Below are positions 2,925-55,401 of a stretch of DNA of 64,000 bases, piece by piece; position 1 is the stretch's first letter; each line of letters begins with the position of its first letter. The notes under the pieces are model-generated. The model had not been told where the DNA came from, ran no database searches, and worked only from the letters and a program-made list of their open reading frames with translations. The translations under genes and the position numbers were made by a program. The stretch comes from an uncultured cyanobacterium (GTDB taxonomy: Bacteria; Cyanobacteriota; Cyanobacteriia; PCC-9006; JAAUQQ01), in the NCBI GenBank assembly GCA_963718615.1, contig OY970368.1, positions 608,001 to 672,000 of the forward strand. The letters are read 5' to 3'.

Positions 2925-2962
2925 CAGTCCTTAAGGATTATTGATGTCCGTCACGCCAAACC

Positions 2963-6369: not shown

Positions 6370-6377
6370 ATCGAACT

Positions 6378-8942: not shown

Positions 8943-8955
8943 GGTTCGGACGGTA

Positions 8956-9468: not shown

Positions 9469-9484
9469 GCCGTCAGTTCTAACC

Positions 9485-11061: not shown

Positions 11062-11369
11062 GGCAGCTCAATCAGGAGACGAATCAATCGGTGAGAAATG
11101 CAGGTGAAGCATGCATTGGCTTAGCTCGTCAAGGACAGCGGTATCCATGCATTTTGTCCAACCGGACCGAATCCATGAAAAGTCCTGCTCCTGCGATCGA
11201 CCGGTCTGAGGCTCAGCCTGAGACGGGGCGAGACACCATACAAATATTTGTATTTCCTACTTTCTAGGTTTCCCGCTGAGCTCAGGGATCTAAAGCCAGC
11301 GTTAGAATTGTCAGGGACTGGAAACTTGCGAATTTTGACATTATTGGGGCGATCGCCCCATCTTTTACC

Positions 11370-11606
11370 ATGTCTGTCACCCTCCGTTTTTTGCCCAACA
11401 ATCTCACGGTTCAAGCAGAACCTGGCGAAGAGTTGCTGGCGGTTGCGCAGCGAGCTGGGATTGCGATTCCTACAGGCTGCATGATGGGGTCTTGCCATGC
11501 CTGTGAGGTGGATTTGAATGGTGAACCGGTTTGTAGCTGTATTACAGCGGTGCCATCGGCGACAGAAGAAATTACGATTGATCTCTATAGCGATCCAACC
11601 TGGTAA
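11370..11606 (+). CDS. 2Fe-2S ferredoxin-like protein
   Basis: GCMMGSCHAC...C motif; cyanobacterial DPTW ending. Confidence 0.9.
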   Translation: MSVTLRFLPNNLTVQAEPGEELLAVAQRAGIAIPTGCMMGSCHACEVDLNGEPVCSCITAVPSATEEITIDLYSDPTW

Positions 11607-11663
11607 TCCGGGTCCATGCGCCTGACAATCCCTGGCAACCTCTCGTAACCGTTTGCAATATTT

Positions 11664-12947: not shown

Positions 12948-14419
12948 GCAGATAGCTCGGCTTTGGATTCTGGACCCAATCCCCAGACAAACTCCGCTAG
13001 CCATTCCTTAACCACGTAGGTGGCGCGGCAATCGTCTTCGTTGTAGACCAAAATGCGATCGAGCTGGGCGCGATCGCCCGTTTTCAACCATTCCACATAC
13101 CAAAAAATCGCCTGCGCCCCATTGGCTTCCCCATCGCGCCAGTCAAACCCCACCCAGCGAGCAATGTGCTTGAGGGCATAGCTTTCCACGGGCATCGTCA
13201 CCGTGTGGGTCACCCAATAGTGAATATCGACAAACCGAGAAACCAACCCCTCAATCACCAGAGGTTCCGTGCCATAGAGCCGACCCAGACGCCGCATGGT
13301 GTCCGCTTCGTAGCTGCAAAAGTGGTAAACCGGTGCATTGCCGTGGACCTGGCAAACGAACGCCAGAAATTCTTCCCAACACTGCTGCTCGTCCTCGGGT
13401 TTTTCGGCCACGAACGAGTGAAACGTTTCGGTGTCCCGCCGATGGTCGACGACCAAAACCCCGTGGAGAAAGGCAATGCCCAAGTCTGGTTCCGCTTCGA
13501 TGTCAAAATAGAGCTCTACGGGCGATCGCAATACCGGGGGCATCGGCACCACCGGCGGTCGCACAGGGCGATTACTCCAAGTGGACTGGGCCTGTTCGAT
13601 CATCTTATGGGCCACCGCCGGACCAAAACCGGGCAAATTTTCCAGCACCTTGGGTTTGGTTTGCCGCAGGATCTCCAGCGTCGTAATTCCGACATGCTGC
13701 AAATAGCCATAGCGTTTGGGCGTCACCCCCGGCAATAGCGACAGATGTTGCTGCTCCACGGCAATGTCGTGGCAAAAATGCTGCCAGGCACAGAGCCCAC
13801 AACGATTGCGCGCAATAAACACTTCGGGCTCAATGGGACCACTCAGCATTTGTGTACAGCCCTCTAAGAGCTCCAGCATGGCGTCCAGTCGCTCCTGCCA
13901 GAGGACGTAGAACGGATCGCGATCGCGCAACAACAGCCAGCTCGCCTCCGGTGCCTGACCCTGAACCTCCGCCAATAGCCAAGCATGGAGCGTCGCCACC
14001 AATTGATACTCCAGCTTGGGGCGACGGCCCAGTTTAATTTGCGCCGGTTCATATTCCCAATTGCCCCAGCGGGAGCGTCCTGGTCGTTTCAAGAGCAAAT
14101 CCGGCTGAGAGGAATAGATCACATGGGCATAGGCTTCATCCCCCGGTACCCACAGGATGCCTTTATAGATACAGTCAATCCCCTCGGCCATCAGGGCTTC
14201 GGTTGCCACAGCCCCCGCTGCGCGATCGCCTTCCGGATAGTCCGGCTGGATGGAGTCATAGGTGGCCAAAACCGTTTGGCGATTCGCAATGCCATCCGCG
14301 ATGATCTTGTTGAGGTAGTCCCCCGGTGGATCGCGCTGTTCGCGATCGCCATATCTTTCTAAGTAGGCCCGCCGATGACAGCGCAGATAATGGAGGAACA
14401 GATCATCACTCAGCAGCAT
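12944..14419 (-). CDS. TM0106-family RecB-like putative nuclease
   Basis: PDLL nuclease-like segment, CxxC-W...C, RNase H-like YFDIE...YALKHIA...YNEDDC. Confidence 0.88.
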   Translation of the reverse strand: MLLSDDLFLHYLRCHRRAYLERYGDREQRDPPGDYLNKIIADGIANRQTVLATYDSIQPDYPEGDRAAGAVATEALMAEGIDCIYKGILWVPGDEAYAHVIYSSQPDLLLKRPGRSRWGNWEYEPAQIKLGRRPKLEYQLVATLHAWLLAEVQGQAPEASWLLLRDRDPFYVLWQERLDAMLELLEGCTQMLSGPIEPEVFIARNRCGLCAWQHFCHDIAVEQQHLSLLPGVTPKRYGYLQHVGITTLEILRQTKPKVLENLPGFGPAVAHKMIEQAQSTWSNRPVRPPVVPMPPVLRSPVELYFDIEAEPDLGIAFLHGVLVVDHRRDTETFHSFVAEKPEDEQQCWEEFLAFVCQVHGNAPVYHFCSYEADTMRRLGRLYGTEPLVIEGLVSRFVDIHYWVTHTVTMPVESYALKHIARWVGFDWRDGEANGAQAIFWYVEWLKTGDRAQLDRILVYNEDDCRATYVVKEWLAEFVWGLGPESKAELSA

Positions 14420-14786
14420 GGTAATCCTACGACCTCCGCCATCTGGAACTGTCAGCGGTCATGGTTCGCTTCCTCGTGACTCGATAAACAAGCTGTCGGT
14501 GAACGGAATTTTGGTGTAAATGCGCCATGGGAGCGCTGTCCAAACTCAGTAATCAACCCGCGTCAAACTAGCATCAAACCGATTGAGGCACCCCTGTGCG
14601 GGAAGTTGCCAGCATTTTCGCACACAAAACTTAAGGCCAGTTGTCTCTAGCTTAACGATCACTTAAGTTTTTTGCGGCGATTCGGAGATTTCTTTACCTT
14701 TTGCGGAGATGGGTGCAGGACTGGTCGCGGGTTGCGATCGCCTGTCAAAATGAAGAGTTGACCTGGAGCAAGCCCCCTATCTCACC

Positions 14787-15497
14787 GTGCGATTCGATAT
14801 CATTACGCTTTTTCCAGAATTTTTTACGACCCCCCTGCAATGCAGTCTGTTGGGTCGTGCCTTGGCAAACGGCATCGCCGAAGTGCAGCTCACCAATCCT
14901 CGGGATTTCACTACGGATAAACACCACAAGGTGGACGATGAACCCTATGGCGGCGGTGTGGGCATGCTGCTCAAGCCGGAGCCAATTTTCGCCGCAGTGG
15001 AAAGTTTACCCGTTTTGCCTCAGCGGTCAGTGCTGCTGATGACGCCCCAGGGTGAACCCATGCATCAGCGCATGTTTGAAGACTTTGCCACCAACTACGA
15101 CCAGCTCGTAGTGATCTGTGGCCACTATGAAGGCGTGGATGAGCGAGTCCTCAGTCTCGTAACACGGGAGGTTTCCCTGGGAGATTTTGTCCTTACCTGT
15201 GGCGAAATTCCGGCGCTGGCCCTAGTCAATGGCGTCGTGCGGCTACGACCTGGGACCGTGGGCAAAGCGGAGTCCCTCAAGTTGGAAAGCTTTGAAACCT
15301 CGCTCCTGGACTATCCGCAATACACCCGTCCAGCGGATTTTCGCGGCATGGCAGTGCCGGAGGTCTTGCGCTCTGGCAATCACCAGGCGATCGCCCAATG
15401 GCGACTCACCCAACAAATCGAAAAGACCCGACGGATGCGGCCCGATCTCTATGCCCAATACGAAAATCAGCACAACCATCAATCCAACTGGCCCTAG
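14787..15497 (+). CDS. trmD: tRNA (guanine37-N1)-methyltransferase
   Basis: VDDEPYGGGVGM, CGHYEGVDERV, LLDYPQYTRP. Confidence 0.97.
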   Translation: MRFDIITLFPEFFTTPLQCSLLGRALANGIAEVQLTNPRDFTTDKHHKVDDEPYGGGVGMLLKPEPIFAAVESLPVLPQRSVLLMTPQGEPMHQRMFEDFATNYDQLVVICGHYEGVDERVLSLVTREVSLGDFVLTCGEIPALALVNGVVRLRPGTVGKAESLKLESFETSLLDYPQYTRPADFRGMAVPEVLRSGNHQAIAQWRLTQQIEKTRRMRPDLYAQYENQHNHQSNWP

Positions 15498-15549
15498 GGG
15501 TTGCCCAGTCCTCGCCCAGGGCCCATGCTCCAAAGCCCATCTTCCAGCG

Positions 15550-16428
15550 TCAATCCAGCGTTGAACGTTCCGGCGGCGCAATATCCTTGCCCACGACCGG
15601 TTTCTGAGTGGCGAGTTGAGGGGCGAGCTGAGGAGCGATCGCCCGAGACACCGCCTCCGGCTCCCGATCCGGCACAACTCGCACACTGGCAGAACTCTGG
15701 CCTCCCCAGGCTAACCCCCCCACTGCACTCACCAGCAATGTCGCATATCCCAAATACAAATGGGTCGGTGTAATCTGACTGGACCGAGCATCCTGTCGTT
15801 GCCAAGGGGCGACCGTATTCGGCAACGGCTGGGATTGGGGCAGTTGAGCAATCAGCCCCTGGGCTTCTTCTCCCAACACGGCTCCGATGCGGCGGAGGAA
15901 CCCTCGCACAAAAATCAGCTCCGGCAGTTTGTCCCCTTGACCGGCTTCGATCGCTTGCAAATGGTACTGGGGCACCTGGGTCCGATTATGTAAAATCGCC
16001 AAGGATAGCCCTTGGGTCTGGCGAATTCGTTGCAGCTCAGGTCCAATGGAGGCCAACATCTCTTGCCAAGTAGGGGGAGACGCATCTTCCGGAGGTTCTG
16101 ACTGGGCTTCTGAAGGAGCCCCCGCAGGGGTCGCAGCAACGTGAGCCATCATCTCCGTCTGGGTGACCGTGACAACTTGATCGCACAGGGTTTGCAGCAG
16201 GGTTTGCAGCAATGCCTGCCCCTGGGAGGACTGATCACCACACAGGGTTGCTAACTGCTGTAGCGTCTGCTGATAGCTCGTTTGCTGGGCTAGTTGGGTG
16301 GCGATCGCCTGATGAATTTCTGGCAATCCCTCTGGCAATCTCTCTGGCAATCCGTCGGGCGTCAATCCCGCTTTAGACAACATCGATAGCGTTTTCCTTT
16401 GGCCCACCGTCATCAAATTGGCAGTCAT
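15550..16428 (-). CDS. RodZ-like helix-turn-helix membrane protein
   Basis: IGPELQRIRQTQGLSL...LQAIEAGQGDKLPELIFVRGFLRR, followed by one TM segment. Confidence 0.75.
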   Translation of the reverse strand: MTANLMTVGQRKTLSMLSKAGLTPDGLPERLPEGLPEIHQAIATQLAQQTSYQQTLQQLATLCGDQSSQGQALLQTLLQTLCDQVVTVTQTEMMAHVAATPAGAPSEAQSEPPEDASPPTWQEMLASIGPELQRIRQTQGLSLAILHNRTQVPQYHLQAIEAGQGDKLPELIFVRGFLRRIGAVLGEEAQGLIAQLPQSQPLPNTVAPWQRQDARSSQITPTHLYLGYATLLVSAVGGLAWGGQSSASVRVVPDREPEAVSRAIAPQLAPQLATQKPVVGKDIAPPERSTLD

Positions 16429-16543
16429 TCCTCACGTTCCCCACAGTAGATTCCGATTAGGGAATTCTTCCAATGGGATGGGCTGGAATCCGGATGGGCT
16501 ACGATGCCAGAACAGACAAATCCTGGTGCCTTCCCCGGCTTAT

Positions 16544-18577
16544 CTAAGCCGCATCGTCGATAACTTCCTGGAAGCGAATAACCTCTTCACGGGGATCGAC
16601 ATGGGTGACGCGCAGGGTGATGCGATCGCCCAACGCCACGTTGCGATCAAACCGAGTCGGCAGTTCCAAACCTAAATCTTCCAGCAAAACCAGCGCCAAA
16701 TTTTCATGCTCCCGCAACCAGCGCAGCATCAGTGCAGGCCAGGGGCAGTCGCCCTTACGACGGAGATATTCCAAGGCCCAGTAATGCTTGGTTTGCCGCT
16801 CCACCAGGACCGCTTCATAGGTAATCAGCCCCAAACTCACCAGCAGTTGTTGCAGAGCATCGCGCTCAAAGGGCAGGGGGTCGCCCCGCAAATGGGCCTT
16901 AATTTGAAAGTGGGCAATCAGATCGCTATAGCGACGAATGGGCGAAGTCACCTGGGTATAAAACTCTAGCCCCAAACTGGCATGGCGACCCGGTGTCAAA
17001 TTCACCTCACTCCGGGGCATACAGCGACGCACCGCACAGTCTCGCACCGGCCCCGCCGGTAATGCCAAGAGCTCAGCCTCCGAGGGCAATTCGGGCTGGG
17101 ACTGCTGCCGAAACGGCACGGGCAACCCATGGCTATGGCCATAGCGTCCGGCGATCTCCCCGGCCAAAATCATCATCTCAGCCACCAACTGCCGGGAGGG
17201 CGATTCTTCGAGCACATCGATCACAATCTCCCCGTCTTCTCCCACCTTGATCGAAGCTTCCGGCATACGAATCGTGACCGACCCCTGGGCTTCCCGCCAC
17301 TGCAGCCGACGCTTGGCCCAGGCGTGCAGATAGGCCAGCTCAGCCTCTTCAGTCACCCCCAGCTCTAGCATTTCGTCCACATCGCTGTAGGTGAGCCGAT
17401 AGGTAGGCCGAATCGAAGCGGGATAAATGTTAAATTCCTCTACCTCGCCCGTTTCCTTCAAGATCACGCTAAAGCTCAAGGCGCAACAGACCTGGCCTTG
17501 CACCAAACTCATTGGCCCCGTGGCCAGCTCCTTGGGAAACATGGGAATCGTCTGCTCGGGCAAATACACCGTCGTGCCCCGACGTCGAGCATCCAGATCT
17601 AACTCATCCCCCGGCTGCAGCCAACGGGTGGGATCAGCAATATGAATCCAAAGGCGCTGACGACCCTCCTCTAACAGCTCAACGCTCAACCCATCATCAA
17701 TCTCTCGCGTACTCTCATCATCAATGGTGTAGACCTTGAGGTGGGTCAGGTCTAGGCGATGGGCAGCATCGGGATCCGGCGGCGGAGAGCTGAGACGGCT
17801 GTAGGTCACATCAAGCACCTTAGAAGAAAAGAGCGTAGGAATTTGCTTACGACGGAGCTGAAGATTTTCGTGGGGCTGCCAATGCCCTAAGTTCACGAGG
17901 AGCTCGAAGGTGGCACGGCTATCGGTGGGTTGGTCTAGGGCCTTAAGCAGCTCAAGAGCCGCAGATTTTTGCTTGGTCTCCTCTGGAAATAATACAAACT
18001 GCTCAAGGGCTTCGAGATATGGGCGATCGCCCTCTTCCCAAGCCACGGCTTCTCCCCTGAGCTTTTGCTGCATTCGCTCAATCAGACTGTGCCAGCGAGT
18101 CTGCTTTTCCTGTTCAACAGCAATCTGATGTTTTAATTCTGCCACCTGAGCCGACGAGCGGGGCTCAAATTGATCTTTGCGTTGCTTGAAGTACAGCTTA
18201 TCTTCCGCAAGTAGTAAATAGGCGGCATAGCAGCAAACTGGACTTTGGTCAGAGAATAATAGCTCAGCCATCTCCGCCGGTCCGACAGGCTGTTTCTCCT
18301 CGACCAAAAATTCCCAGGCCACTTCCAGCGTCGAGGGGTCTAGATAGCTACCTAGCTCCGCTTGGAGAGATTTGAGATCCGCTAGGCTGTAGTCATTGCC
18401 AGGGAGAACATAAGTAATATCACGGGGATGAAGTGTATGGTTTTGACCGCGATCGTCCACCGCAATCCAGTGCTTCTTGCCTTCGGGGCGATCGAGGAGC
18501 CCTAGGCGGTGGTGACTGCGCGCCCCCCCGGAAGTATCGCTTCCCTGCCGAAATTCGACTAGCGTTCCCTTTTCCAC
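16544..18577 (-). CDS. RNase II/RNB-family exoribonuclease
   Basis: TIDDESTREIDDGLS, HIADP, TSPIRRYSDL. Confidence 0.93.
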   Translation of the reverse strand: MEKGTLVEFRQGSDTSGGARSHHRLGLLDRPEGKKHWIAVDDRGQNHTLHPRDITYVLPGNDYSLADLKSLQAELGSYLDPSTLEVAWEFLVEEKQPVGPAEMAELLFSDQSPVCCYAAYLLLAEDKLYFKQRKDQFEPRSSAQVAELKHQIAVEQEKQTRWHSLIERMQQKLRGEAVAWEEGDRPYLEALEQFVLFPEETKQKSAALELLKALDQPTDSRATFELLVNLGHWQPHENLQLRRKQIPTLFSSKVLDVTYSRLSSPPPDPDAAHRLDLTHLKVYTIDDESTREIDDGLSVELLEEGRQRLWIHIADPTRWLQPGDELDLDARRRGTTVYLPEQTIPMFPKELATGPMSLVQGQVCCALSFSVILKETGEVEEFNIYPASIRPTYRLTYSDVDEMLELGVTEEAELAYLHAWAKRRLQWREAQGSVTIRMPEASIKVGEDGEIVIDVLEESPSRQLVAEMMILAGEIAGRYGHSHGLPVPFRQQSQPELPSEAELLALPAGPVRDCAVRRCMPRSEVNLTPGRHASLGLEFYTQVTSPIRRYSDLIAHFQIKAHLRGDPLPFERDALQQLLVSLGLITYEAVLVERQTKHYWALEYLRRKGDCPWPALMLRWLREHENLALVLLEDLGLELPTRFDRNVALGDRITLRVTHVDPREEVIRFQEVIDDAA

Positions 18578-45008: not shown

Positions 45009-46892
45009 TTGTCTGACAGGGATCCTTCAAATCCAAACCCTGAAGCCCAGTTCCCTGAAGCCCAGTTCCCTGAAGCCCAATCGACTCCTGACGCAATACA
45101 CCAGGCGTCTGGAACAATGGAGCTGAGGATTGACCAACATTCTATGAAAAAACACCGGGTGTCCCCCACTGACCGCTCCAGCTATTGGCAACTGCTTCCC
45201 TTCCTGCGCCCCCAAACCGGGACGATTGTCAGGGCGCTGCTGTGTACGCTGGTGTTTATTGCCTTTTGGCCATTGCTGGCGCGATTGGCGGGAACGGCGG
45301 CAGAGTATTTGAGCAAGGGACAGGTGCGGGCAATGGCGCGACTGTCGGCACTGCTGGCCGTTGCCTTTTTGGTCCATAAAACCGCCCAATATGGTCAAGA
45401 TTCGCTAATGGCACGGGCTGCCCTCAAGATTGCGCTGGATCTGCGGCGGGCAGTCTATGTTCATCTGCAAAAGCTAGATCTGGGCTATTTTGAATCGGCT
45501 AAAACCGGTGACCTCACCTATCGGCTGACAGAAGATGTCGATCGCGTGGGGGAGGTGATCAAAAAGATCTTCCATGACTTTGTCCCCTGTGTCTTACAGC
45601 TCATTGTTGTGTTGATCTATATGGTCTATCTTAACTGGCAACTGACGCTGGCGACGTTTATCATTGCGCCACTGATGGCCGTGTTGGTGGGATGGTTTGG
45701 GGAGTTGCTCCTGAAGTTTTCGCGCCGCAGCCAAAACCGTATTTCAGATTTATCTTCGCTGCTGACCGAGGTGTTTTCGGGCATTCGGCTCATCCGGGCT
45801 TTTGCGGCGGAGGAATATGAGATCGATCGCTTTGCCCGCATTGCCGAACAAAACCGCCAAGCCAACTATTCCGCCGCCTGGTTGCAAGCTATCCAGCATC
45901 CGATCATTGGTTTTCTCTATGCCATGAGTTTGTTGCTGTTGCTACTGCTGGGAACCTGGCAGATTTCGGAGCGTAATCTCACCGGGAGTCAGTTTGTCAG
46001 CTATATTGCGGCGGTGATTATGCTGGTGGATCCGATCGCCCACCTCACCGAAAACTACAACACGTTCAAACAGGCCGAAGCCTCCGTGGATCGGGTGTTT
46101 GAAATTATGAATGTACAACCGGCGGTACTAGAGCGCCCCGAGGCCAAGCGACTGCCCACCGTCAGCGGCAAGGTTGAATTTAAGCAGGTAAGTTTTGCCT
46201 ATCAGCCGGAGCAGCCAGTCTTGCGGGAGATTGGGCTGTTGGCATTTCCGGGGGAGGCGATCGCCCTCGTCGGTGCCTCCGGCGCGGGCAAAACCACGCT
46301 GGTCAACCTCATTCCCCGCTTCTACGACCCCCAAGGGGGCCAAATTCTCATTGATGGCGTGGATATTCGCGATGTCACGCTGCGCAGCCTCCGCCGCCAG
46401 ATCGGCATTGTCCCCCAGGAGACGATTTTGTTCTCGGGGACCGTGGCGCAAAATATTGCCTTTGGTCAGCGGGAAATTGACCTAGAGGCCGTCCAGGAAG
46501 CGGCCAAGGTGGCCAATGCCCATCAGTTTATTCAGCAACTGTCTGACGGGTATCACACTTGGGTGGGCGAGCGGGGGGTGAATTTATCGGGGGGACAACG
46601 GCAGCGCATTGCGATCGCCCGCGCCGTCCTGCTCAACCCTCGGATTTTGATTTTAGATGAAGCCACATCAGCCTTGGATTCGGAGTCGGAAGCTTTAGTG
46701 CAAGAAGCCCTGGAACGACTGATGAAAAACCGCACGGTGTTTATTATTGCCCATCGGTTGGCAACGGTACGTCGAGCCGATCGCATTCTCGTGGTCGAAA
46801 AAGGGCAACTGGTCGAATCTGGAACCCACGAGGAATTGCTGGAGCAAGGCGGGCGTTATGCGGGGTACTATGCACAGCAGTTCAGTGCTTAG
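45009..46892 (+). CDS. ABC transporter, fused permease/ATPase (MsbA-like exporter)
   Basis: TM domain, GASGAGKT, LSGGQRQR, LILDEATSALD; start uncertain. Confidence 0.92.
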   Translation: MSDRDPSNPNPEAQFPEAQFPEAQSTPDAIHQASGTMELRIDQHSMKKHRVSPTDRSSYWQLLPFLRPQTGTIVRALLCTLVFIAFWPLLARLAGTAAEYLSKGQVRAMARLSALLAVAFLVHKTAQYGQDSLMARAALKIALDLRRAVYVHLQKLDLGYFESAKTGDLTYRLTEDVDRVGEVIKKIFHDFVPCVLQLIVVLIYMVYLNWQLTLATFIIAPLMAVLVGWFGELLLKFSRRSQNRISDLSSLLTEVFSGIRLIRAFAAEEYEIDRFARIAEQNRQANYSAAWLQAIQHPIIGFLYAMSLLLLLLLGTWQISERNLTGSQFVSYIAAVIMLVDPIAHLTENYNTFKQAEASVDRVFEIMNVQPAVLERPEAKRLPTVSGKVEFKQVSFAYQPEQPVLREIGLLAFPGEAIALVGASGAGKTTLVNLIPRFYDPQGGQILIDGVDIRDVTLRSLRRQIGIVPQETILFSGTVAQNIAFGQREIDLEAVQEAAKVANAHQFIQQLSDGYHTWVGERGVNLSGGQRQRIAIARAVLLNPRILILDEATSALDSESEALVQEALERLMKNRTVFIIAHRLATVRRADRILVVEKGQLVESGTHEELLEQGGRYAGYYAQQFSA

Positions 46893-47024: not shown

Positions 47025-48131
47025 GTGGCACTCAAGAAATCCGAACTCTATAGCTCGCTTTGGGCAAGCTGCGACGAACTCCGGGGCGGCATGGATGCCA
47101 GCCAGTACAAGGATTATGTGCTGGTTCGGAATTTGATTCAGCGGGGCTATCTCAAGGGGATTATTGGGTTGCCTGCGAACTTGTTTTATGGGACAGGGAT
47201 TCCGGCTTGCATTGTGGTGATTGATAAAGCGAATGCTGGGCAGCGGGATGGCATTTTCATGATTGATGCCAGTGCGGGGTTCATGAAGGATGGCAATAAA
47301 AATCGGTTGGGGGATCGGGATATTCACAAGATTGTGGATGTGTTTACGAATCAGTTAGAAATTGCTGGATACTCGCGGATGGTGCCGCTGGAAGAGATTG
47401 AGCGCTATGACGTGTATCAGCATCTGATGGATTACTGGGCTGAGGTGATGCAGGATGATTGCTATTTGATTGCGGCGGAGGGTTGGCAGGCGCAGACGTA
47501 TCGGATGATTGAGGTGAACAAAAAGGGGAAGGAGGTGGATAAGGGTTGGGCCTGTGATTTGGTGCCGAAGGCGCTGATTGTGGCGCGGTATTTTGCGGCG
47601 GAGCAGGGGGAAATTGCGACGCAGCAGGCGGAACTGGAGGGGGCGAACGCTCAGATGGCGGAGCTAGAAGAGGAGCAGGTTGGGGAAGAGGGGGCTTTTG
47701 CGGAGCTGGAGAAGGTGAATGGGGCGGCGGTCAAGGCGCGGTTGAAGGAGGCGAAGGCTTCTATGGGGAGCGATCCAGGGTTGAAGGCGGAGGTGCAGGT
47801 TTTGCAGGAATGGGTGAAGTTGTCTGATCGACAGACGAAGCTGAAGAAGGCGGTGAAGGAGGCGGAGGATGAGCTGGATCGGTTGGCCTATGGGAAGTAT
47901 CCTGAGCTGACGGTGGAGGAGATTCAGCGGTTGGTGGTGGAGGATAAGTGGTTGGCGCGGATTGGGGCGGAGATTGCGGGGGAGATGGAGCGGGTGAGTC
48001 AGGGGCTGGCGGCGCGGGTGAAGGTTTTGGCGGGGCGGTATGGGGTGGCGTTGCCGGAGCTGACGCAGCGGGTGGTGGCGCTGGAGGCCAGGGTGGCGGG
48101 GCATTTGGCGAAGATGGGGTTCGGAATGTGA
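47025..48131 (+). pseudogene. hsdM: Type I RM modification subunit HsdM, internally deleted (open frame, no methyltransferase motifs)
   Basis: Family N-terminus MALKKSELYSSLWASCDELRGGMDASQYKDYVL joined directly to GIIGLPANLFYGTGIPAC; no DPxCGSG or NPPF; C-terminal coiled region present. Confidence 0.85.
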
Positions 48132-48406
48132 ATCGTTATAAGCTAAACTTATGTGTAAAGTCAGGGTTGTGTCTGCAAAAGTGGATTTAGTGTACATAAG
48201 ACAATCTTATGTATGAATATTGCTAATTCTCGTTCATATGGCGGCGCGATCTGAAGCAGCTGTTTAGGCCAAGGTGGCTGATGCATAAGTTTTCCTGCTG
48301 TCTGCTCAAGGTGTGGGCGCTCACTCTCTCGGTAGCGTTTCGCTTTTAAGGTTTACACTAGGGTTCATTCTTATTAACGAAAAGAGCGGCTTATTGATAA
48401 TATAGA

Positions 48407-49591
48407 TTGGCGAACTATTCAGTATTAACGGAACCGATAATAGTGGTGAAGACTTCTAGATCTGGTCAATACGTGCGGCAGATCGAGGGTTATGGGGCGT
48501 TTATCCCGAATGATCTGCCACCGATTCCTGAGATTGCGATCGATCAGGAGATGTGGAATCTGCTATCACAGGCAGATCGGGCTTTGGGGCGTTTAGATGG
48601 TTCGACGGATGCACTACCCAATCCGGATTTGTTCGTGTTTATGTATGTCCGAAAGGAAGCTGTGCTGTCTAGTCAGATTGAGGGCACACAGGCGTCATTG
48701 ATTGATGTTTTGGAATTTGAATCTCAGGCATTGGAACCAGATAACCCTCAGGATGTTGAGGAGGTTGTTAATTATATTACGGCGATTAATCATGGGTTAG
48801 AACGGCTTCAGACAATGCCTGTCTCTTTACGGTTGATTCGCGAGATTCACCAAGCGTTGATGAAGGGTGTGAGGGGTGCTGAGCGCAGTCCAGGGGAGTT
48901 TCGACGCTCCCAGAATTGGATTGGGCCAGGGGGTTGTACGTTGGCTAGTGCGACATATGTGCCGCCGCCGCCCCATGAGATGCTGCGGGCTTTGGATAAC
49001 TTGGAGCGGTTTTTGCATAGTCCGCAGCCAATGCCGACGCTGATCAAAGTGGGATTGGCCCATGCCCAGTTTGAAACGATTCACCCTTTCTTGGATGGGA
49101 ATGGCAGGACGGGGCGGCTGTTGATTACGTTCTTACTGTGTGAACAAAATATTTTGCAACGACCCCTGCTGTATATCTCATATTATTTCAAACTGTACCG
49201 GGCTAAATATTATGATCGACTACAGGCCGTTCGCGATCGCGGGGACTGGGAAGGATGGTTGAAGTTCTTTCTGCGTGGCGTTTATGAGGTGGCCCAGGAG
49301 GCAGCGCTGACCGCGCGACAAATCGTCAATTTGAAAGAGGAGCATCGTCAATTGGTGCTGAGTCGAATGGGACGGAAAGCGGGGAATTCGATCGCGGTGC
49401 TTGAGAGTCTTTATTTCAAGCCGATTTTTACAGTTGAACATGTTGCGAATATTACGAATCTCTCGTATCCAAATGCGAATGCCTTGATTAAGCAGTTGAT
49501 TGATATTGGTTTGTTTCAGGAGATTACCGGGCAGAAGCGCAATCGGGCATTTTCCTATGCGCCTTATTTAGCGGTTTTTCAGGATAATTAG
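48407..49591 (+). CDS. Fic family protein (class II, N-terminal inhibitory motif)
   Basis: HPFLDGNGRTGR catalytic motif, SSQIEG motif, C-terminal winged helix EITGQKRNR. Confidence 0.93.
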   Translation: MANYSVLTEPIIVVKTSRSGQYVRQIEGYGAFIPNDLPPIPEIAIDQEMWNLLSQADRALGRLDGSTDALPNPDLFVFMYVRKEAVLSSQIEGTQASLIDVLEFESQALEPDNPQDVEEVVNYITAINHGLERLQTMPVSLRLIREIHQALMKGVRGAERSPGEFRRSQNWIGPGGCTLASATYVPPPPHEMLRALDNLERFLHSPQPMPTLIKVGLAHAQFETIHPFLDGNGRTGRLLITFLLCEQNILQRPLLYISYYFKLYRAKYYDRLQAVRDRGDWEGWLKFFLRGVYEVAQEAALTARQIVNLKEEHRQLVLSRMGRKAGNSIAVLESLYFKPIFTVEHVANITNLSYPNANALIKQLIDIGLFQEITGQKRNRAFSYAPYLAVFQDN

Positions 49592-49699
49592 AGGAGGAGT
49601 TGGTATGAGGAATTTTAATCTGCGGCATTATGCCGATCGATATCGACTATTTTTTGCTACCAGTGCGGCGGCGTTTTCGTGGATTTTGGAGGGTGAGGG

Positions 49700-50547
49700 G
49701 TGAGTAGTCAGAAGGTGCCGAAGGGGTATAAGCAGACTGAGGTTGGGGTGATTCCTGAGGATTGGGAGGTTACTAAAGTAAGTGGAATCGCATCACCTGT
49801 AAAAAATGCTATCGTTGGTGGCCCATTTGGCTCAGATCTCGTTTCTAGCGACTACGTTGAAGAGGGGATTCCCGTCATTCGTGGGCAAAATATGGGTGAG
49901 CGATATATCTCGGGAAATTTTGTATTTGTAACTCAAGAGAAAGCTAAATCATTAGAATCTAACCTCGCTCAATCAGAGGATTTATTGTTTACACAACGAG
50001 GAACCCTTGGTCAGGTGAGCCTTGTTCCTGCTAATTCATTTCCGCGCTACTTGATATCGCAAAGTCAAATGAAGCTCACGGTCAGCAGAAGGATAGCTGA
50101 TCCGCTCTTTTTTTATTATGTTTTCAGTTCTTCTGCGCAGCAAAAATATGTTCAACTAAATACTATTCAGACAGGAGTTCCACACGTTAATCTCGGGATT
50201 CTTCGAAGCACTCCTGTACAATTGCCTCAGATCGCCGAGCAAGAAGCCATCGCCCAAGCCCTCAGCGACACCGATGCCCTGCTCGAATCCCTAGAGCAAC
50301 TCCTCGCCAAAAAGCGCCAGATTAAGCAAGGGGCGATGCAGGAGCTGCTGACTCCTCAGGCAAGCTGGAAAGATGAAAAATTAAAAGAAGTTGCACCTTT
50401 ACAAAGAGGATTTGATCTCCCTAACAGTCAATTGAAGCAGGGTCTATATCCTGTTGTATATTCTAATGGAATTCAAAATCATCATAGTCAATTTATGGTT
50501 AAGGCACCTGGTGTTGTTACGGGACGTTCTGGAACACTAGGCGTTAT
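49700..50547 (+). pseudogene. hsdS: Type I RM specificity subunit HsdS, truncated by IS1 in the second TRD
   Basis: PKGYKQTEVGVIPEDW, TRD1, central EQEAIAQALSD...KQGAMQELL, start of TRD2 up to GRSGTLG, then the IS end. Confidence 0.88.
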
Positions 50548-51452
50548 GGTAGTGCTTTTATGTAAAGGATAAAGAAAAACAGAGTGAAGCAGTTGTAGTC
50601 AATAGGAGCTGAAGATAAAGGGAAAGAAGGGAAAACTGTTGTAGAAACGAGGAGCGGTTGTAGGAGAAAGGAAAAGATGACCATAGAACGTACTTGCCCG
50701 ACCTGTGGCTCCCACGACATTTCCAAGAACGGCACAACCCGCCGAGGCAAACAAAACTACAAATGCCGAGACTGCAACCGACAGTTTGTCGAAGACCCCC
50801 AGTGGAAGCCGAAAGACAAAGACACCCAGAGTTTGATAGACCTGCTGCTGCTAGAGAAAATTCCCCTGGCAGGGATTGCTAGAGCAACGGGCGTTTCGAG
50901 TAGCTGGCTGCAAGATTACGTCAATGAACACTATAAGGCGGTGCCCCAAAAGGCAGAGGTACTGCCCAAAGCGAAAGGAAGGCTGAGGGTGCAAATGGAT
51001 GAGCTATGGTCCTTTGTGGACCATAAGGGCAACAAGCAATGGGTCTGGATAGCTTTGGATGCGAACACCCGAGAGGTGATTGGCTGCCACATCGGCGACC
51101 GCTCCCGAGCATCAGCCGTGGCGTTATGGCAATCCTTACCGTCGGTGTATCGGCAATGCGCCACGGTCTATACGGATTTTTGGGAAGCCTACGAGAGTGT
51201 GATTCCAGCGCAGCGTCATCGTGCCGTCAGCAAAGACAGTGGGTTGACGAGCTACATCGAAAGGTTCAACAACACCCTGAGGCAGAGGGTTTCGCGCCTA
51301 GTGAGAAAAACCTTGTCTTTCTCCAAGAAGCTGGACAACCATATCGGTGCAATTTGGAATTTCATTCATGAGTACAACCGTCTAATCAGAGAAAAGATGC
51401 TGAACAACCAGCCCAGTGCTATTTTCTCCATCCTTTACTAAAGGGGACTACC
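50548..51452 (+). mobile_element. IS1-family insertion sequence (905 bp)
   Basis: Imperfect terminal IRs GGTAGTGCTTTTATGTAAAGGAT and (reverse complement) GGTAGTCCCCTTTAGTAAAGGAT; no target duplication. Confidence 0.9.
50677..51441 (+). CDS. IS1-family transposase (single fused InsA-InsB ORF)
   Basis: CPTCGS...KNG...QNYKCRDC zinc finger, MDELWSFV, YTDFW, IERFNNTLRQR. Confidence 0.93.
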   Translation: MTIERTCPTCGSHDISKNGTTRRGKQNYKCRDCNRQFVEDPQWKPKDKDTQSLIDLLLLEKIPLAGIARATGVSSSWLQDYVNEHYKAVPQKAEVLPKAKGRLRVQMDELWSFVDHKGNKQWVWIALDANTREVIGCHIGDRSRASAVALWQSLPSVYRQCATVYTDFWEAYESVIPAQRHRAVSKDSGLTSYIERFNNTLRQRVSRLVRKTLSFSKKLDNHIGAIWNFIHEYNRLIREKMLNNQPSAIFSILY

Positions 51453-52059
51453 CCGTAATGCAGATATCCAAAGATACTTGGGGAATCATCCTCAAGACAT
51501 CGGGCAACGGTTGAGGCAACTCACAGCCTCAGGCTGGTTGAACAAAGATGGTCATGGCAGAGGTACGAGATACCGCCTGTGCAAGGTGAACTCCTCTCCT
51601 GCCAAGGCTTTCTCTCCTGGATCAACTTCTAGCTCCGAGCATTTGCCCTCAAGCTCCGAGCATTTGCCCTCAAGCTCCGAGCATTTGCCCTCAAGCTCCG
51701 AGCATTTGCCCTCAAGCTCCGAGCATTTGCCCTCAAGCTCCGAGCATTTGCCCTCTCATGATGCAGTCATGCTTTCTTCAGAGATAAGTCATCCAGAAGC
51801 TGAGACCGTTGCTCGGCTTCTGGAAATAGCTGCCCCCATTCGTAATACGCGCAAAATCAATAAAACAATCATGGAGAATGCAATATTGGCACTATGCGAG
51901 GATAAGTGGCTAACATTACGCACCCTTACAGAGCTACTGAATCGTCATTCAGACACCTTAAGAACGCACTATATCAATTCCATGCTGAAGGATGGTCGTC
52001 TAGAAGCTCGTGTTCCTGGTAGCCCCAATCACCCGGCGCAGGCTTATCGCAAAAAATAG
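51453..52059 (+). pseudogene. 3' remnant of an ATP-binding/AlbA-type regulator with winged-helix domains, 5' part lost at the IS1
   Basis: Frame is open from the IS end: RNADIQRYLGNHPQDIGQRL...GHGRGTRYRL, and C-terminal HTH ...PNHPAQAY. Confidence 0.6.
51631..51756 (+). repeat. Tandem repeat, 6 x 21 bp AGCTCCGAGCATTTGCCCTCA (SSEHLPS)
   Basis: Five identical units and a sixth differing at its last base; no spacers. Confidence 0.97.
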
Positions 52060-52271
52060 GAAAATCGCCACCATCCTCTCCGACATGGACAGCGAAATCG
52101 CCAGCCCCGAAACCAAACTCGCCAAGCCCCACTCAAACAAGGCATGATGCACCTCGTTTTGCCGTTAAGTCGCTGTGTCCATTTAAATTCGCCAGACAGT
52201 GCCTGGCGAATTCCCAAAATTCCCCCATAATAAGACTCACGGCCAAAAGCTCCCCCTCCCCCCGCCCCGCC

Positions 52272-53606
52272 ATGAGCAACATCGGACACTCCGAACGCGT
52301 CACCCAAAACCGTGTGATCACCCTCTTCAAAGATCAACTCGGCTACGACTACCTCGGCAACTGGCAAGATCGCCCCAAAACCACAGGCCAGCCCAACAGC
52401 AACATCGAAGCAATCGACCTCACCCGCCACCTCACCGCCCAAGGCTACAGCCCCGCCCAAATCAGCCAAGCCCTCTACCAACTCCGCACCGAAGCCGACA
52501 AACCCACCCGCAGCCTCTACGACAACAACAAAGCCGTATACAGCCTCCTCTACTACGGCATCCAAATCAAAACCAGCGCCAGCGAACCCACCGAAACCCT
52601 CCAACTAATCAACTGGCAAAACCCCGAACAAAACCACTTCGCGATCGCCGAAGAAGTCACCCTCCAAGGCCAAAAAGAAAAACGCCCCGACCTCGTTTTG
52701 TATCTAAACGGCATCGCGATCGCCCTCATCGAACTCAAAAACAGCCGCGAAGACATCGGCAAAGGCATCCGCCAAAGCCTCACCAACCAACAACCCGAAT
52801 TCATCGGCGCATTCTTCAGCACCATCCAACTGATCTTCGCCGGAAACGATTCCGAAGGACTGCGCTACGGCACCATCGGCACCCCCGAAAAATACTTCCT
52901 CACCTGGAAAGAAGACGAAACCGAAAACAGCACCTACAAACTCGACAAATACCTGCTCAAACTCTGCGAACCACACCGCCTCCTCGACCTCATCCAAAAC
53001 TTCATCCTCTTCGACGCTGGCGTCAAAAAACTCTCCCGCTGCCACCAATACTTCGGAGTCAAAGCCGCCCAGAAACATATCCGCAACCACGAAGGCGGCA
53101 TCATCTGGCACACCACCCAAAGCGGCAAACTCCACCGCACCATGAAAGCCCTCATGCCCAAAGCCACCTTCATCGGTTTCACCGGCACCCCCCTACTCAA
53201 AAAAGACGCCCAAACCAGCCTCGAAGTCTTCGGCAAATACATCCACACCTACAAATTCAGCGAAGCCGTCGAAGACAACATCGTCCTCGACCTGATCTAC
53301 GAAGCCCGTGACATCGACCAAACCCTCGGCTCCGAAACCAAAATCGACGCCTGGTTCGACGCCAAAACCCAAGGACTCAACGACTGGCAAAAAGCCACCC
53401 TACGGGAAAAATGGGGCACCCTGCAAACCGTCCTCAGCCTCGACGGTGAGGACAAAGACTTCGGCTACATCGTCGATTACAAAGACCTGTTCAAAAAAGT
53501 CGAAAACGCGATCGCCGTCTACACCGCTCATTATCTTCATGGATCAATTTATGCCTGCTTGGCGGTTTTACCGAGAAACTCTCGATCAACTGCCTATATG
53601 ACATGA
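52272..53606 (+). pseudogene. hsdR: Type I RM restriction subunit HsdR, internally deleted and truncated
   Basis: RPDLVLYLNGIAIALIELK nuclease motif and GFTGTP retained; QGSGKS, DECH and helicase motifs V-VI absent. Confidence 0.88.
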
Positions 53607-53751: not shown

Positions 53752-54366
53752 ATGGCCACTCTCCCATTTCTCCCGTTTCTTCTCCTTTTCCTCGTCGGTC
53801 TTCTCCTCTCCACCATTTTCGGCATTACGAACATCGTTCTCGCCTTCCAAGAGAGCGCCCTGTGGGGAATTTTGGCCTTGCTGGTTCCCTTTGCCGCCTT
53901 GGTTTTTAGCATCAAATTTTGGAGCCGCAAATGGGTGCGGCGGTCGTTCCTGGGAAATATTGGCGGGGCGGTGCTGATGATTGCCGGTATGATCGGTCTC
54001 AGCGTAGCCATGCCAGGGCTGATGAATCAGTTCGAAGGAGCCATGACGATGCCCATGGAGGATCGTCCCTTTGCAAACGGGGAACCGGGAGAACTCGGGG
54101 ATTTACCCCCAGGAACGCTCCCCGAAGGGGTTCTGCCTGAAAATGGAGATGCCTTTGCCGCCGGGGTCAACTATGCCACCGCTGCAGCAGAGCTCACCCA
54201 AACCGCTAAAACCCCAGAAGAATGGGAAAAAGTTGCAACCCAGTGGGAATATGCGGTGGCGATGATGGCGGCGGTGCCCGCAGACCATCCCAAATCCGCC
54301 TTGGCCCAGACAAAAGTGGGAGAATATAAAAAGAACTTGGCCTACGCTCAGCAGAATTCCCAGTAA
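53752..54366 (+). CDS. Hypothetical membrane protein with cyanobacterial helical C-terminal domain
   Basis: Three hydrophobic helices; C-terminus TQTAKTPEEW...AQTKVGEYKKNLAYAQQ. Confidence 0.75.
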   Translation: MATLPFLPFLLLFLVGLLLSTIFGITNIVLAFQESALWGILALLVPFAALVFSIKFWSRKWVRRSFLGNIGGAVLMIAGMIGLSVAMPGLMNQFEGAMTMPMEDRPFANGEPGELGDLPPGTLPEGVLPENGDAFAAGVNYATAAAELTQTAKTPEEWEKVATQWEYAVAMMAAVPADHPKSALAQTKVGEYKKNLAYAQQNSQ

Positions 54367-54399: not shown

Positions 54400-55401
54400 A
54401 TGGCCCCTGCACCGTTATCGCCCTCTCCCTTAATTGAAGACATCCTTGGCGTTTCTCCTGCCGAGAGCTGGGTGTCGGTTTGCGATCGCACCTCCTGGGG
54501 CCGAATTTTGGTGGGGGATGGCGATCGCATCAAATTTCTCCACAACCAAAGCACCAACGATTTCCAAAACCTCACAGCGGGCCAAGGCTGCGAAACCGTA
54601 TTTGTCACCTCCACCGCCCGAACGCTGGATTTGGCGACAGCCTACGTTTTGGAAAATGAAATTCTGCTCCTCGTCTCACCCCAGCGCACGGAATTATTGC
54701 TGAAGCAATTCGATCGCTACATTTTCTTTGACGACGCAGTGAAGCTCACCAACGTCACCCAGACCCTAGCCTGTTTCACCCTATTTGGCCCTGGCAGCTA
54801 CGCCTTGCTTCAGCAGCTCACCGCCAAGGATTTTTCAAGACAACCGTTGTATCACCATCAACAGATCAACCTAGAAAGTATCGAGATCCGCATTGCCAGC
54901 GGCAGCGACCTAGGTTTACCAGGCTATACTCTTTTCTGCTCGATCGACCAAGCGGCTTCGCTCAAACAGTTGCTAGAAGAACTCAATACTAAGCCCTGCA
55001 CCTTAGACACCTGGGAAGCGCTCCGCATCGTGCAAGGGCGACCCGCCCCCGACCATGAATTAACAGAAGACTACAATCCCCTGGAAGCAGGGCTATGGCA
55101 AACGATTTCCTTTGATAAGGGCTGCTACATCGGTCAGGAAACCATCGCCCGACTCAATACCTACAATGGCGTCAAACAAAGACTTTGGGGTCTAGAGCTA
55201 GATCAATGGGCGTCACCGGGTCCCGTCATCACCCCAGCAGGCGAGAAAGTGGGTCAACTGACCAGCATTGTGCCGACCCCAACCGGAGCTTTTGGCCTCG
55301 CCTATATCCGCACCAAAGCAGGCGGGGCAGGACTCTCCATTCAGGTTGGTGATGCATCTGGTACAGTCGTACCCTTGGGCTACGTTAGTCACCCGTGTTA
55401 G
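54400..55401 (+). CDS. ygfZ: YgfZ/GcvT-like folate-binding protein
   Basis: KFLHNQSTND, KGCYIGQETIARL signature. Confidence 0.9.
   Translation: MAPAPLSPSPLIEDILGVSPAESWVSVCDRTSWGRILVGDGDRIKFLHNQSTNDFQNLTAGQGCETVFVTSTARTLDLATAYVLENEILLLVSPQRTELLLKQFDRYIFFDDAVKLTNVTQTLACFTLFGPGSYALLQQLTAKDFSRQPLYHHQQINLESIEIRIASGSDLGLPGYTLFCSIDQAASLKQLLEELNTKPCTLDTWEALRIVQGRPAPDHELTEDYNPLEAGLWQTISFDKGCYIGQETIARLNTYNGVKQRLWGLELDQWASPGPVITPAGEKVGQLTSIVPTPTGAFGLAYIRTKAGGAGLSIQVGDASGTVVPLGYVSHPC

Follow-up and report, generated by a model that had tools for sequence, protein, structure and literature searches.

Mirror-image strand skew at silent sites occurs throughout the genome, and across cyanobacteria, in many conflict genes. 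The preliminary description had treated it as a property of one restriction-modification (RM) island; the same mirror is found at dozens of other loci, and the hsdM and hsdR remnants of the island would be the two arms of a single mirror-skew domain in a decayed operon.

The island lies in the window (the whole stretch of 64,000 nucleotides that was analysed, whose numbering is used here). To judge from its sequence, what remains here is a type I RM operon in decay, originally hsdM-(cargo)-hsdS-hsdR, with the following parts:

47025..47126, + strand: 5' remnant of hsdM, first 34 codons, unskewed (Pfam HsdM_N, profile positions 3-26)
47127..48131, + strand: left G/T-rich arm, the 3' part of hsdM (N6_Mtase, profile positions 199-303)
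48407..49591, + strand: Fic/DOC cargo gene, moderately G/T-rich (Pfam Fic_N and Fic)
49700..50572, + strand: truncated hsdS, first recognition domain and central conserved region (Pfam Methylase_S)
50677..51441, + strand: IS1-family transposase inserted in the centre (Pfam DDE_Tnp_IS1 and Zn_ribbon_InsA)
51478..52059, + strand: unskewed ORF with six tandem SSSEHLP heptads (translation) and a Fic-like C-terminal domain (Pfam Fic-like_C)
52061..52144, + strand: distal conserved region of hsdS, a 28-aa tail remnant, where the C/A-rich arm begins (BLASTP)
52272..53525, + strand: right C/A-rich arm, an hsdR remnant with nuclease domain and motor parts (Pfam HSDR_N and two SWI2_SNF2 stretches)

Decay is evident throughout. 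The 5' remnant of hsdM shares 100% amino-acid identity with the start of the intact hsdM of L226, another cyanobacterium, and ends at an internal deletion junction where the next ~300 codons are missing and the skewed part starts, at 47127; the latter lacks ~100 further codons and aligns to L226 hsdM in two blocks of 70-75% amino-acid identity. The HsdM relic matches both Pfam profiles, HsdM_N and N6_Mtase, only at the positions given above, and with such internal deletions it cannot be active. Instead of two recognition domains, HsdS retains a single Methylase_S stretch in a truncated ORF of 290 aa; 11 of 21 residues of the tail remnant are identical to the central conserved region of that ORF (E 0.001 in a single BLASTP comparison). 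Between these two pieces of hsdS sits the IS1 element, over whose transposase gene depth is 170-440 versus ~10-40 in neighbouring bins (runs X1 and X11). The hsdR remnant has suffered two internal deletions and a 3' truncation: its alignment to L226 hsdR falls into three blocks, between which ~100 and 163 codons are absent, and ~340 are absent at the end, so that instead of a full-length HsdR there is HSDR_N with a partial SWI2_SNF2, and 424 of ~1048 residues can be aligned to L226. The island is accessory: the relative G003 has no RM genes at the same site, where its ABC-transporter gene, orf204 and the next core gene lie side by side.

The base counts first reported for the two arms proved exact on recount (32 G and 6 C at 47941-48000; 30 C, 9 G and 4 T at 52381-52440), as did the claim that the sign flips across the central cargo. 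GC skew is +0.51 in the left arm (47127-48131), nearly neutral at +0.10 in the stretch between the arms (48132-52060) and -0.38 in the right arm (52061-53525), where A is well above T. Only 0.06% of 1-kb genome windows match the left-arm GC skew in extremeness, and only 0.07% the keto-amino skew of the right arm.

The skew resides at synonymous positions, as had been proposed. Fourfold sites of the hsdM arm are G.79, T.11, C.07 and A.04, and those of the hsdR arm (hsdS tail plus hsdR remnant, 52061-53525) are C.83, A.08, G.06 and T.03, against a genome average of G.30, T.19, C.36 and A.15; at twofold sites the favoured pyrimidine and purine are T (.76) and G (.88) in the former, C (.95) and A (.95) in the latter. 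Third-position keto-amino skew is +0.68 for the hsdM ORF and -0.77 for the hsdR fragment, the minimum among the 4869 ORFs of the genome. The two arms therefore have complementary silent-site spectra even though both genes are co-oriented on the + strand, and on both sides it is the strand whose 3' end points towards the centre that is G/T-rich. Codon positions 1 and 2 shift only mildly in either arm, which leads us to reject amino-acid composition, named at the outset as a possible undoing of the claim, as the cause. The opposition of the two genes thus stands with its bounds corrected: the first 34 codons of hsdM are unskewed (fourfold G.31, C.44), and the right arm starts at ~52061 in the hsdS tail, not at the start of hsdR. 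The Fic/DOC gene (third-position skew +0.45, fourfold G.46) is an inner, weaker part of the left arm, and the truncated hsdS forms the AT-rich unskewed centre (fourfold G.16, T.38, C.19, A.26).

The same polarity recurs across the 6.1-Mb genome. After merging, 56 domains consist of a G-rich arm followed by a C-rich arm; reverse neighbours number 24, and 4 of these are junctions between tandem domains. With gaps of up to 3 kb allowed between arms, G-rich-then-C-rich pairs outnumber the reverse by 54:16, 28:7 and 20:3 at |GC skew| above 0.3, 0.35 and 0.4, respectively, and about 4-5 strong pairs of reverse polarity are present. Read along the top strand, C is scarce to the left of the centre and G to its right, rarely the reverse, which is the polarity expected of resection. 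Arms extend 0.5-4 kb on each side of the centre (median 1.2-1.3 kb). Twelve domains are contained in single ORFs, on either strand, whose third positions pass from ~90% G/T through a neutral middle to ~90% C/A. In the operon at genome positions 5014388-5022827 the roles are exchanged, with an hsdR that becomes G/T-rich towards its 3' end and a C/A-rich hsdM; the sign of the skew is accordingly set by position and not by gene identity.

Pooled spectra, taken only from arms within confident ORFs, bear out the strand-complement symmetry. On the keto strand, fourfold sites are G.66, T.14, C.13 and A.08 in the 116 arms whose coding strand is keto, and G.77, T.08, C.07 and A.07 in the 43 complemented arms; dependence on the neighbouring base is the same in both sets (r=0.88, 9 shared contexts). 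Arm silent sites are also raised in GC, with G+C at.78-.85 of fourfold sites versus.66 genome-wide.

The centres are hsdS or PglX recognition modules, or the tandem repeats of STAND, CHAT and TPS genes, and are AT-richer and unskewed: GC is.476 in centres,.544 in arms and.523 in the genome. Tandem repeats make up 18.3% of centres, 1.3% of arms and 0.3% of random segments. Among hand-picked large ORFs from skewed regions, 39 of 45 contain conflict-type domains (RM, BREX, MmeI, STAND, CHAT, caspase, TIR, TPS or similar), versus 3 of 10 random unskewed ORFs of at least 700 aa.

Decay of the skew with distance from the centre, which had been predicted, is seen in individual operons. In three other type I RM operons (RM-2, RM-3 and RM-4), in a BREX operon and in the orthologous operon of L226 the skew peaks beside the centre and fades outward. 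Among pooled arms of at least 1.5 kb, 31 of 50 are more skewed in their inner than in their outer third (p=0.02), a weak gradient that is partly built in by the alignment of arms; some arms are plateaus with sharp edges.

The skew of HsdM and HsdR is restricted to cyanobacterial copies: loci of HsdM homologues are skewed in 4 of 6 cyanobacterial cases versus 0 of 74 others, those of HsdR homologues in 2 of 2 HIP1-rich cases versus 0 of 78 others, and L226 has an intact orthologous operon with the full mirror. The finding that was to count against the preliminary description, the same skew in unrelated taxa or at non-variable loci, did not materialize; unrelated homologues are unskewed, and the island is absent from G003. 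Nor is the mirror universal among cyanobacterial homologues. Of the 60 relatives' genomes searched, G046 and G057 have the closest HsdR homologues, and these are neutral, as are most of the best 30 CHAT loci of other cyanobacteria (3 below -0.3, 3 above +0.3). The sequence HIP1 (GCGATCGC) occurs ~1.0 times per kb in arms and centres versus 1.45 per kb genome-wide, and its enrichment in the arms over synonymous shuffles (105 observed versus 16) indicates that these have long been resident in cyanobacteria.

What might generate such a pattern? We favor, tentatively and at a little short of an even chance, a strand-asymmetric mutation or repair bias that acts at the level of DNA on 3'-ended single strands flanking a recombination-prone centre. 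Breaks would arise in or near the unstable variable centre, be it a recognition-domain gene or a tandem-repeat sensor module; 5'-to-3' resection would expose 3'-ended single strands on both sides, and homologous recombination, possibly with exchange of cassettes, would repair the damage. An asymmetric bias, whose chemistry we infer only in outline, would act on the exposed strands repeatedly over long evolutionary time and drive silent sites towards G, above T, on the strand that runs 5'-to-3' towards the centre, with GC-favouring repair in the recombining arms pushing the outcome to G rather than T. Deamination alone (C>T and A>G), the chemistry first suggested, does not give the observed spectrum, in which G (.79) stands to T (.11), and in the other arm C (.83) to A (.08), such that fourfold G is eight times T and either transversions or a GC-favouring force is needed. 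Spacers, too, speak against the proposal: a pure mutational equilibrium should skew them like fourfold sites, yet they are far less skewed, as intergenic spacers track the third-position skew of their flanks weakly (slope 0.21, r=0.31), and uncalled stretches of arms have skews of +0.19 and -0.17. The weak pooled gradient, the plateau-like arms, the strong pairs of reverse polarity, the neutral homologues in other cyanobacteria and an excess of convergent flanking ORFs likewise count against it. The complete genome has RecJ, and RecC was not found in it, a gene content that is compatible with RecJ-type 5' resection.

A precedent for the polarity exists in yeast. In experiments there, single-switch mutation clusters at resected double-strand breaks lose C from the top strand on the left and G on the right, and are attributed to 5'-to-3' resection in both directions, the exposed 3' tails then suffering damage specific to single-stranded DNA (PMC6786661). 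The polarity is identical to that of the cyanobacterial domains, but the yeast clusters are single somatic events made by an added deaminase or alkylating agent (PMC6786661). The cyanobacterial signal, by comparison, is a fixed and near-saturating silent-site composition on an evolutionary scale, in a bacterium, with G far above T and with a break that is only postulated.

Other systems resemble it in part. Bacterial replication GC skew is likewise an asymmetry of G over C and T over A that changes sign at defined points, although the sign change here is local, of terminus type and repeated dozens of times. In vertebrate mitochondrial DNA and in linear viral genomes replicated from both ends, the strand that is single-stranded for longer turns G/T-rich, as a gradient and mostly at silent sites, and replication from both ends places a change of sign in the middle. 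Those skews depend on replication and cover whole replicons, whereas here one chromosome carries ~56 units of 3-10 kb, each with a variable gene module at its centre. GC-biased gene conversion is symmetric between strands and gives no skew by itself; the likeness lies in arms that are GC-raised at silent sites around heterologous centres that are AT-rich.

We rejected an origin/terminus switch in this genome. Whole-genome skew is weak and irregular (100-kb windows are mostly within 0.02, with a maximum of 0.053, against 0.5 in local arms), the cumulative skew follows an irregular course, and there are 56 local domains in place of one or two switches with megabase arms. Replication could nonetheless act locally if forks arriving from either side stalled at a hard-to-copy centre (repeats, bound proteins), in which case neither recombination nor cassette exchange is needed: the lagging-strand template behind a stalled fork stays single-stranded and would gather the same asymmetric damage. 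Stalling predicts the same polarity and kilobase length scale, the centres are rich in tandem repeats, and in the absence of a clear global skew forks may arrive from both sides. We nevertheless consider it distinctly unlikely, because it leaves unexplained the raised silent-site GC of arms against AT-rich centres, the like behaviour of repeat-free recognition-domain centres (hsdS, PglX) and, given that other repeats exist, the restriction to accessory conflict genes.

Selection on codons or RNA is very improbable. It would require that long, rarely expressed conflict genes and operons favor G/U-ending codons in their 5' parts and C/A-ending codons in their 3' parts, possibly as a very long translation ramp or for control of mRNA folding. 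Third codon positions are indeed far more skewed than spacers; the coding-sense order is always G/T first and C/A later, in single ORFs and co-oriented domains alike; and coding-sense G/T arms outnumber C/A arms by 116 to 43. That excess, however, is what a baseline of +0.09 adds to symmetric tails, and the two spectra complement each other exactly and depend alike on neighbouring bases. Upstream genes are wholly G/T-rich, with skew rising toward the 3' end, and downstream genes wholly C/A-rich; codon positions 1 and 2 also shift, and flanks and spacers have the same sign. Usual translational codon bias was rejected outright, in line with the preliminary description, as highly expressed genes use neither codon set: in phycobiliprotein genes fourfold C is.40, fourfold T.34 and twofold purine G.53, and psbA and psbD are similar.

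R-loops might instead form where sense transcripts entering from the left converge with antisense transcripts from the right, and G-rich RNA and an exposed non-template strand would reinforce the skew. Antisense transcription is frequent in cyanobacteria, and a non-template strand so exposed would acquire a skew of the observed sign, but the arms are least skewed at their outer ends, where such promoters would lie, and most skewed next to the centre; G runs are depleted compared to synonymous shuffles (G8, 9 versus 38), and photosystem and phycobilisome genes are without such skew. We regard it as very improbable. We give as little credence to the suggestion, made in the preliminary description, that arms are selected as GT-rich 3' tails, for RecA loading or as Chi-like signals, such that flanked cassettes recombine or spread better. 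RecA prefers GT-rich DNA and the G/T-rich strand is placed where the 3' tail would be, yet the motifs lend no support: against synonymous-codon shuffles HIP1 is the sole strongly enriched word, and the best G/T-rich words are weak (e.g., GCTGGAG, 87 versus 49). RecC was not found, and any one silent site would be under minute selection, which is hard to square with sites 80-95% saturated. Least credible of all is a mosaic of horizontally acquired pieces from differently skewed donors, its mirror an accident of assembly, which fits an accessory island and an operon full of deletions and interrupted by an IS but not a genome-wide polarity, switches within intact ORFs, an intact ortholog with the same mirror, HIP1 in arms and centres alike, or the finding that 0 of 74 non-cyanobacterial HsdM loci and 0 of 78 HIP1-poor HsdR loci are skewed enough to serve as donor.

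Returning to a bias on resected strands, a bolder and unlikely extension is that photosynthetic cyanobacteria undergo recurrent break-and-repair focused on the specificity modules of immune and conflict genes (the recognition domains of hsdS and PglX; the TPR, WD40 and FHA repeat sensors of STAND, CHAT and TPS proteins), of which silent-site skew would be the genomic footprint. The cassette switching of mating-type or antigen genes would then have a bacterial counterpart, with a possible role in diversification. The hsdS recognition domains of type I RM systems and the repeats of NLR-like STAND proteins are exchanged or reshuffled by recombination, and the unskewed centres here are exactly such modules; the literature searched yielded no report of a compositional footprint flanking them. 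Should the favoured reading hold, silent-site composition alone marks sites of recurrent breakage and recombination, which would be the specificity modules of defence and conflict genes, and the rapid diversification of bacterial immune receptors and restriction specificities would become directly testable. If the extension is true, such hotspots could be found from sequence alone, and the lineage-specific repair or mutator enzyme responsible by phylogenetic profiling.

As these domains show, strand asymmetry may be local, mirror-symmetric and close to saturation, which is relevant to methods for codon usage, horizontal transfer and gene finding, the last because antisense frames in the arms stay open and can be miscalled as genes. 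Domains flanked by convergent ORFs number 18 versus 3 flanked by divergent ORFs, counts to be read with the knowledge that ORF scoring favours G-rich frames, and 2 versus 1 where ORFs of at least 400 aa lie on both sides; the convergent excess hints at a role for gene direction.

The genome that carries the window is cyanobacterial and complete, a single contig of 6.10 Mb with a GC-content of 52.3%, in which phycobiliprotein and photosystem II genes are present. Between conserved flanking genes the window holds a heavily degraded type I restriction-modification (RM) island:

45009-46892, conserved ABC-transporter gene, left flank of the island
47025-48131 (+ strand), hsdM, with most of the N-terminal and catalytic part deleted
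48407-49591, Fic/DOC gene
49700-50572, hsdS, truncated
50677-51441, IS1 transposase
51478-52059, ORF with a Fic-like C-terminus
52061-52144, 28-residue remnant of the distal conserved region of hsdS
52272-53606 (+ strand), hsdR fragment
53752-54366 and 54400-55401, two conserved genes, right flank of the island

An intact ortholog of this operon, with the full mirror skew (a G/T-rich arm, an AT-richer unskewed centre and a C/A-rich arm), is found at locus L226 (positions 2288-17302 of a record titled Cyanobacteriota MAG). Measured against it, hsdM lacks approximately 300 and then approximately 100 codons, while hsdR lacks approximately 100 and 163 codons together with the last 340 or so. In G003, a genome of the same family, the ABC-transporter gene, a 204-aa ORF and the next core gene adjoin one another with no RM genes between them, which marks the island as accessory; the comparison rests on G003, the flanks being on separate contigs in six other relatives.

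The preliminary description had reported 32 G and 6 C at 47941-48000, and 30 C, 9 G and 4 T at 52381-52440, and had placed the skew mostly at synonymous positions. The counts for both 60-nt stretches are exact on recount, and silent sites do carry the skew; the hsdM arm (47127-48131) and the hsdR arm (52061-53525) are mutually complementary.

Silent-site composition of the two arms.
Fourfold sites: hsdM arm G.79, T.11, C.07, A.04; hsdR arm C.83, A.08, G.06, T.03
Twofold pyrimidine sites: hsdM arm T.76; hsdR arm C.95
Twofold purine sites: hsdM arm G.88; hsdR arm A.95

Fourfold sites across the genome average G.30, T.19, C.36 and A.15. Across 4,869 non-overlapping long ORFs the third-position skew (keto minus amino bases, that is G+T versus A+C) has a mean of +0.09 and a standard deviation of 0.15; the hsdR fragment, at -0.77, is the minimum of this set, and the hsdM fragment reaches +0.68 (the maximum is +0.71). 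No skew is present in codons 1-34 of hsdM, which precede the deletion junction at 47127, or in the AT-rich hsdS in the middle of the island.

The skew is real and extends further than the preliminary description had supposed. Sliding windows over the whole genome revealed hundreds of strongly skewed segments with a marked polarity: within 3 kb, G-rich followed by C-rich outnumbers the reverse order by 54 to 16 at an absolute skew above 0.3, by 28 to 7 above 0.35 and by 20 to 3 above 0.4. Merging of segments gave 56 G-then-C domains, 24 reverse neighbours (four of them junctions of tandem domains) and 170 unpaired arms. Median lengths are 1.2-1.3 kb for arms and 1.7 kb for centres, and copies of arms were found at 66-99% identity by paralogue search. 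Twelve domains lie wholly within one ORF, on either strand; in the three of these that were profiled, third positions pass from approximately 90% G/T through a neutral middle to approximately 90% C/A. The pattern is identical on reverse complementation and therefore says nothing about the direction of a gene. Chromosome-wide skew is weak and irregular, and the domains are therefore not inverted pieces of a skewed replichore.

Two rare, strong pairs have the reverse polarity, C-rich then G-rich (whole-genome positions 3702601-3705000 and 1502551-1508500); neither is a junction of tandem domains, which makes them exceptions to the rule. A 28-kb run of G/T-rich glycosyltransferase and TPR genes on the + strand (2101600-2129300; GT2/GT4, including a GT4-conflict match), with internal duplicates 85-99% identical, is a long arm of a single sign and has no evident partner. 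An apparent bias in gene orientation (18 convergent versus 3 divergent domains) was discounted, many of the ORFs being short and the amino-acid score favouring G-rich frames.

The sign of the skew is set by position and not by gene identity. In two other type I operons hsdM is G/T-rich and hsdR C/A-rich, the skew rising along hsdM towards hsdS and dropping off along hsdR. In a third, where the order is hsdR ... hsdM, it is hsdR that turns G/T-rich near its 3' end and hsdM that is C/A-rich. The BREX operon switches sign inside pglX, and along pglZ the skew weakens with distance, starting at -0.7 or -0.8 and ending at -0.2; the same outward fading is seen at L226, where an upstream 1134-aa ORF goes from +0.1 to +0.6 in the direction of hsdM. 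A meta-profile aligned on inner boundaries is partly circular, and for this reason only inner and outer thirds were compared: of 50 pooled arms of at least 1.5 kb, 31 have a stronger skew in the inner third than in the outer one (p = 0.02). The drop from arm to centre is abrupt, with a small residual skew beyond the arms, and some arms look like sharp-edged plateaus.

A Pfam scan of 45 large ORFs, a non-exhaustive set of the largest picked from skewed regions, assigned 39 to RM, BREX, STAND, CHAT, TPS and similar kinds. These include RM, MmeI and BREX proteins (four type I operons, PglX, PglZ, BrxC/D); STAND NTPases (NACHT, NB-ARC and nSTAND), which have TPR, WD40 or HEAT repeats; CHAT, caspase, TIR, trypsin or FGE-sulfatase fusions; Roc-COR-LRR proteins; and TPS/filamentous-haemagglutinin-like proteins and the like. 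Among ten random unskewed ORFs of at least 700 aa there were three such proteins, two of them TPR-CHAT. The conflict-type class is thus enriched in skewed regions, yet some of its members are unskewed. Skew domains also contain caspase/FGE-sulfatase and FGE-sulfatase proteins (whole-genome positions 5504311-5506386, 3273021-3274976 and 6032761-6034341); diversity-generating retroelements commonly target the FGE-sulfatase fold.

The unskewed centres comprise hsdS genes, the region of PglX after the methyltransferase domain, and repeat arrays. Tandem repeats make up 18.3% of centre bases, compared to 1.3% in arms and 0.3% in random segments; a total of at least 100 nt of tandem repeat occurs in 19 of 56 centres, 4 of 112 arms and 3 of 280 random segments. 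GC-content is.476 in centres,.544 in arms and.523 in the genome, and is lower in the centre than in both of its own arms in 41 of the 56 domains.

The best-supported reading is repeated recombinational repair of breaks at the centre: breaks would arise there, and their repair, many times over, would leave the skew in the arms. We infer this from the unstable or exchangeable centres, the raised GC-content of the arms, the centre-out trend, and RecJ without detectable RecC (a search of the complete genome for RecC, PF04257, and RecJ_OB, PF17768, gave no match to the former and two to the latter). The domains have the polarity of break-resection clusters in yeast, where bidirectional 5'-to-3' resection from a break, together with damage to single-stranded DNA, is experimentally shown to yield that polarity (PMC6786661). 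A stalled replication fork predicts the same strands as resection. Convergent transcription predicts a gradient opposite to the one observed. The core of the preliminary description, namely that the strand whose 3' end points to the variable centre is driven G/T-rich, has support at the level of pattern; that recombination drives it is plausible rather than demonstrated. Literature searches, mostly at the level of abstracts, turned up no account of local mirror skew around RM, BREX or STAND genes.

The force appears to act on DNA rather than on codons. The dependence of the fourfold base on its neighbours is alike in coding-strand and complement arms (r = 0.88, nine contexts), an agreement to which general strand-symmetric dinucleotide biases could contribute. 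Codon positions 1 and 2 shift in the same direction as the third, flanks and uncalled stretches carry the same sign as the arms, and phycobiliprotein, psbA and psbD genes use neither codon set. Selection among codons predicts neither the complementarity of the arms nor a sign that is operon-wide. The skew of inter-gene spacers depends only weakly on that of the flanking third positions (slope 0.21), which counts against a simple mutational equilibrium; this weak spacer skew, and the roughly eightfold excess of G over T at fourfold sites, find no explanation in any version of the account.

It had also been proposed that the arms are selected as GT-rich RecA-loading sequences. A search of arms against synonymous shuffles for Chi-like and RecA-type motifs found no G/T-rich Chi-like word to be prominent, leaving selection for RecA or Chi sites without motif support. 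The only strongly enriched word was the short palindrome HIP1 (105 occurrences versus 16 in shuffles); long G runs were depleted, and known palindrome avoidance was evident.

HIP1 is linked to cyanobacteria and has 8,832 copies in this genome (1.45 per kb). Its density of approximately one per kb in arms and centres alike shows long residence in cyanobacteria. Among the homologues examined the pattern is restricted to cyanobacteria, and it is patchy within the class. Of 80 metagenomic HsdR loci (61-73% identity), a skew of -0.4 or below occurs only in two, both of them HIP1-rich with a value of -0.73; values for the other 78 lie between -0.37 and +0.25. For HsdM, four of 80 titled genome loci reach at least +0.4, all cyanobacterial by title, two more with cyanobacterial titles stand at +0.30 and +0.19, and the remaining 74 range from -0.35 to +0.20. 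HsdR loci of relatives have a window of -0.5 or below in 5 of 19 cases, the two closest homologues being neutral. PglX homologues change from plus to minus along the gene in five of five same-class genomes (25-30% identity; 65-69% in genome G089), three passing +0.4 and then -0.5; no such change is seen in the 11 genomes that represent the phylum's other classes. The best 30 CHAT-family loci in other cyanobacteria are mostly unskewed, which indicates dependence on both gene and lineage, and not a general trait of CHAT genes. Mosaic transfer as a source of the arms lacks donors.

Contigs over the two focal arms comprise pieces 85-97% similar and, in two metagenomes, near-identical short pieces. 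Ten right-arm differences, among 40 of 652 variants, give an anecdotal tally: six with T or G in the reference and C or A in the relative, three C/A interchanges and one A>G. In one sample (runs X1 and X11), contigs connect 47127, the hsdM deletion junction and start of the skew, straight to 52076, omitting 4,948 bases; this joint has just 27 letters on its shorter side and may be spurious. In the same runs contig depth over the IS1 element (50677-51441) is 170-440, compared to approximately 10-40 in neighbouring bins, which makes the element multi-copy or widespread there. The adjoining ORF (51478-52059) has six perfect tandem SSSEHLP heptads, encoded by 21-nt repeats, before its Fic-like C-terminal domain.

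Genome-wide, stop codons are few in the off-frames and antisense frames of arms, and long spurious ORFs appear as a result. Examples are 52044-52604 (- strand, 186 aa) and 52199-53311 (+ strand, 370 aa) in the window; such ORFs could be mistakenly annotated as genes.
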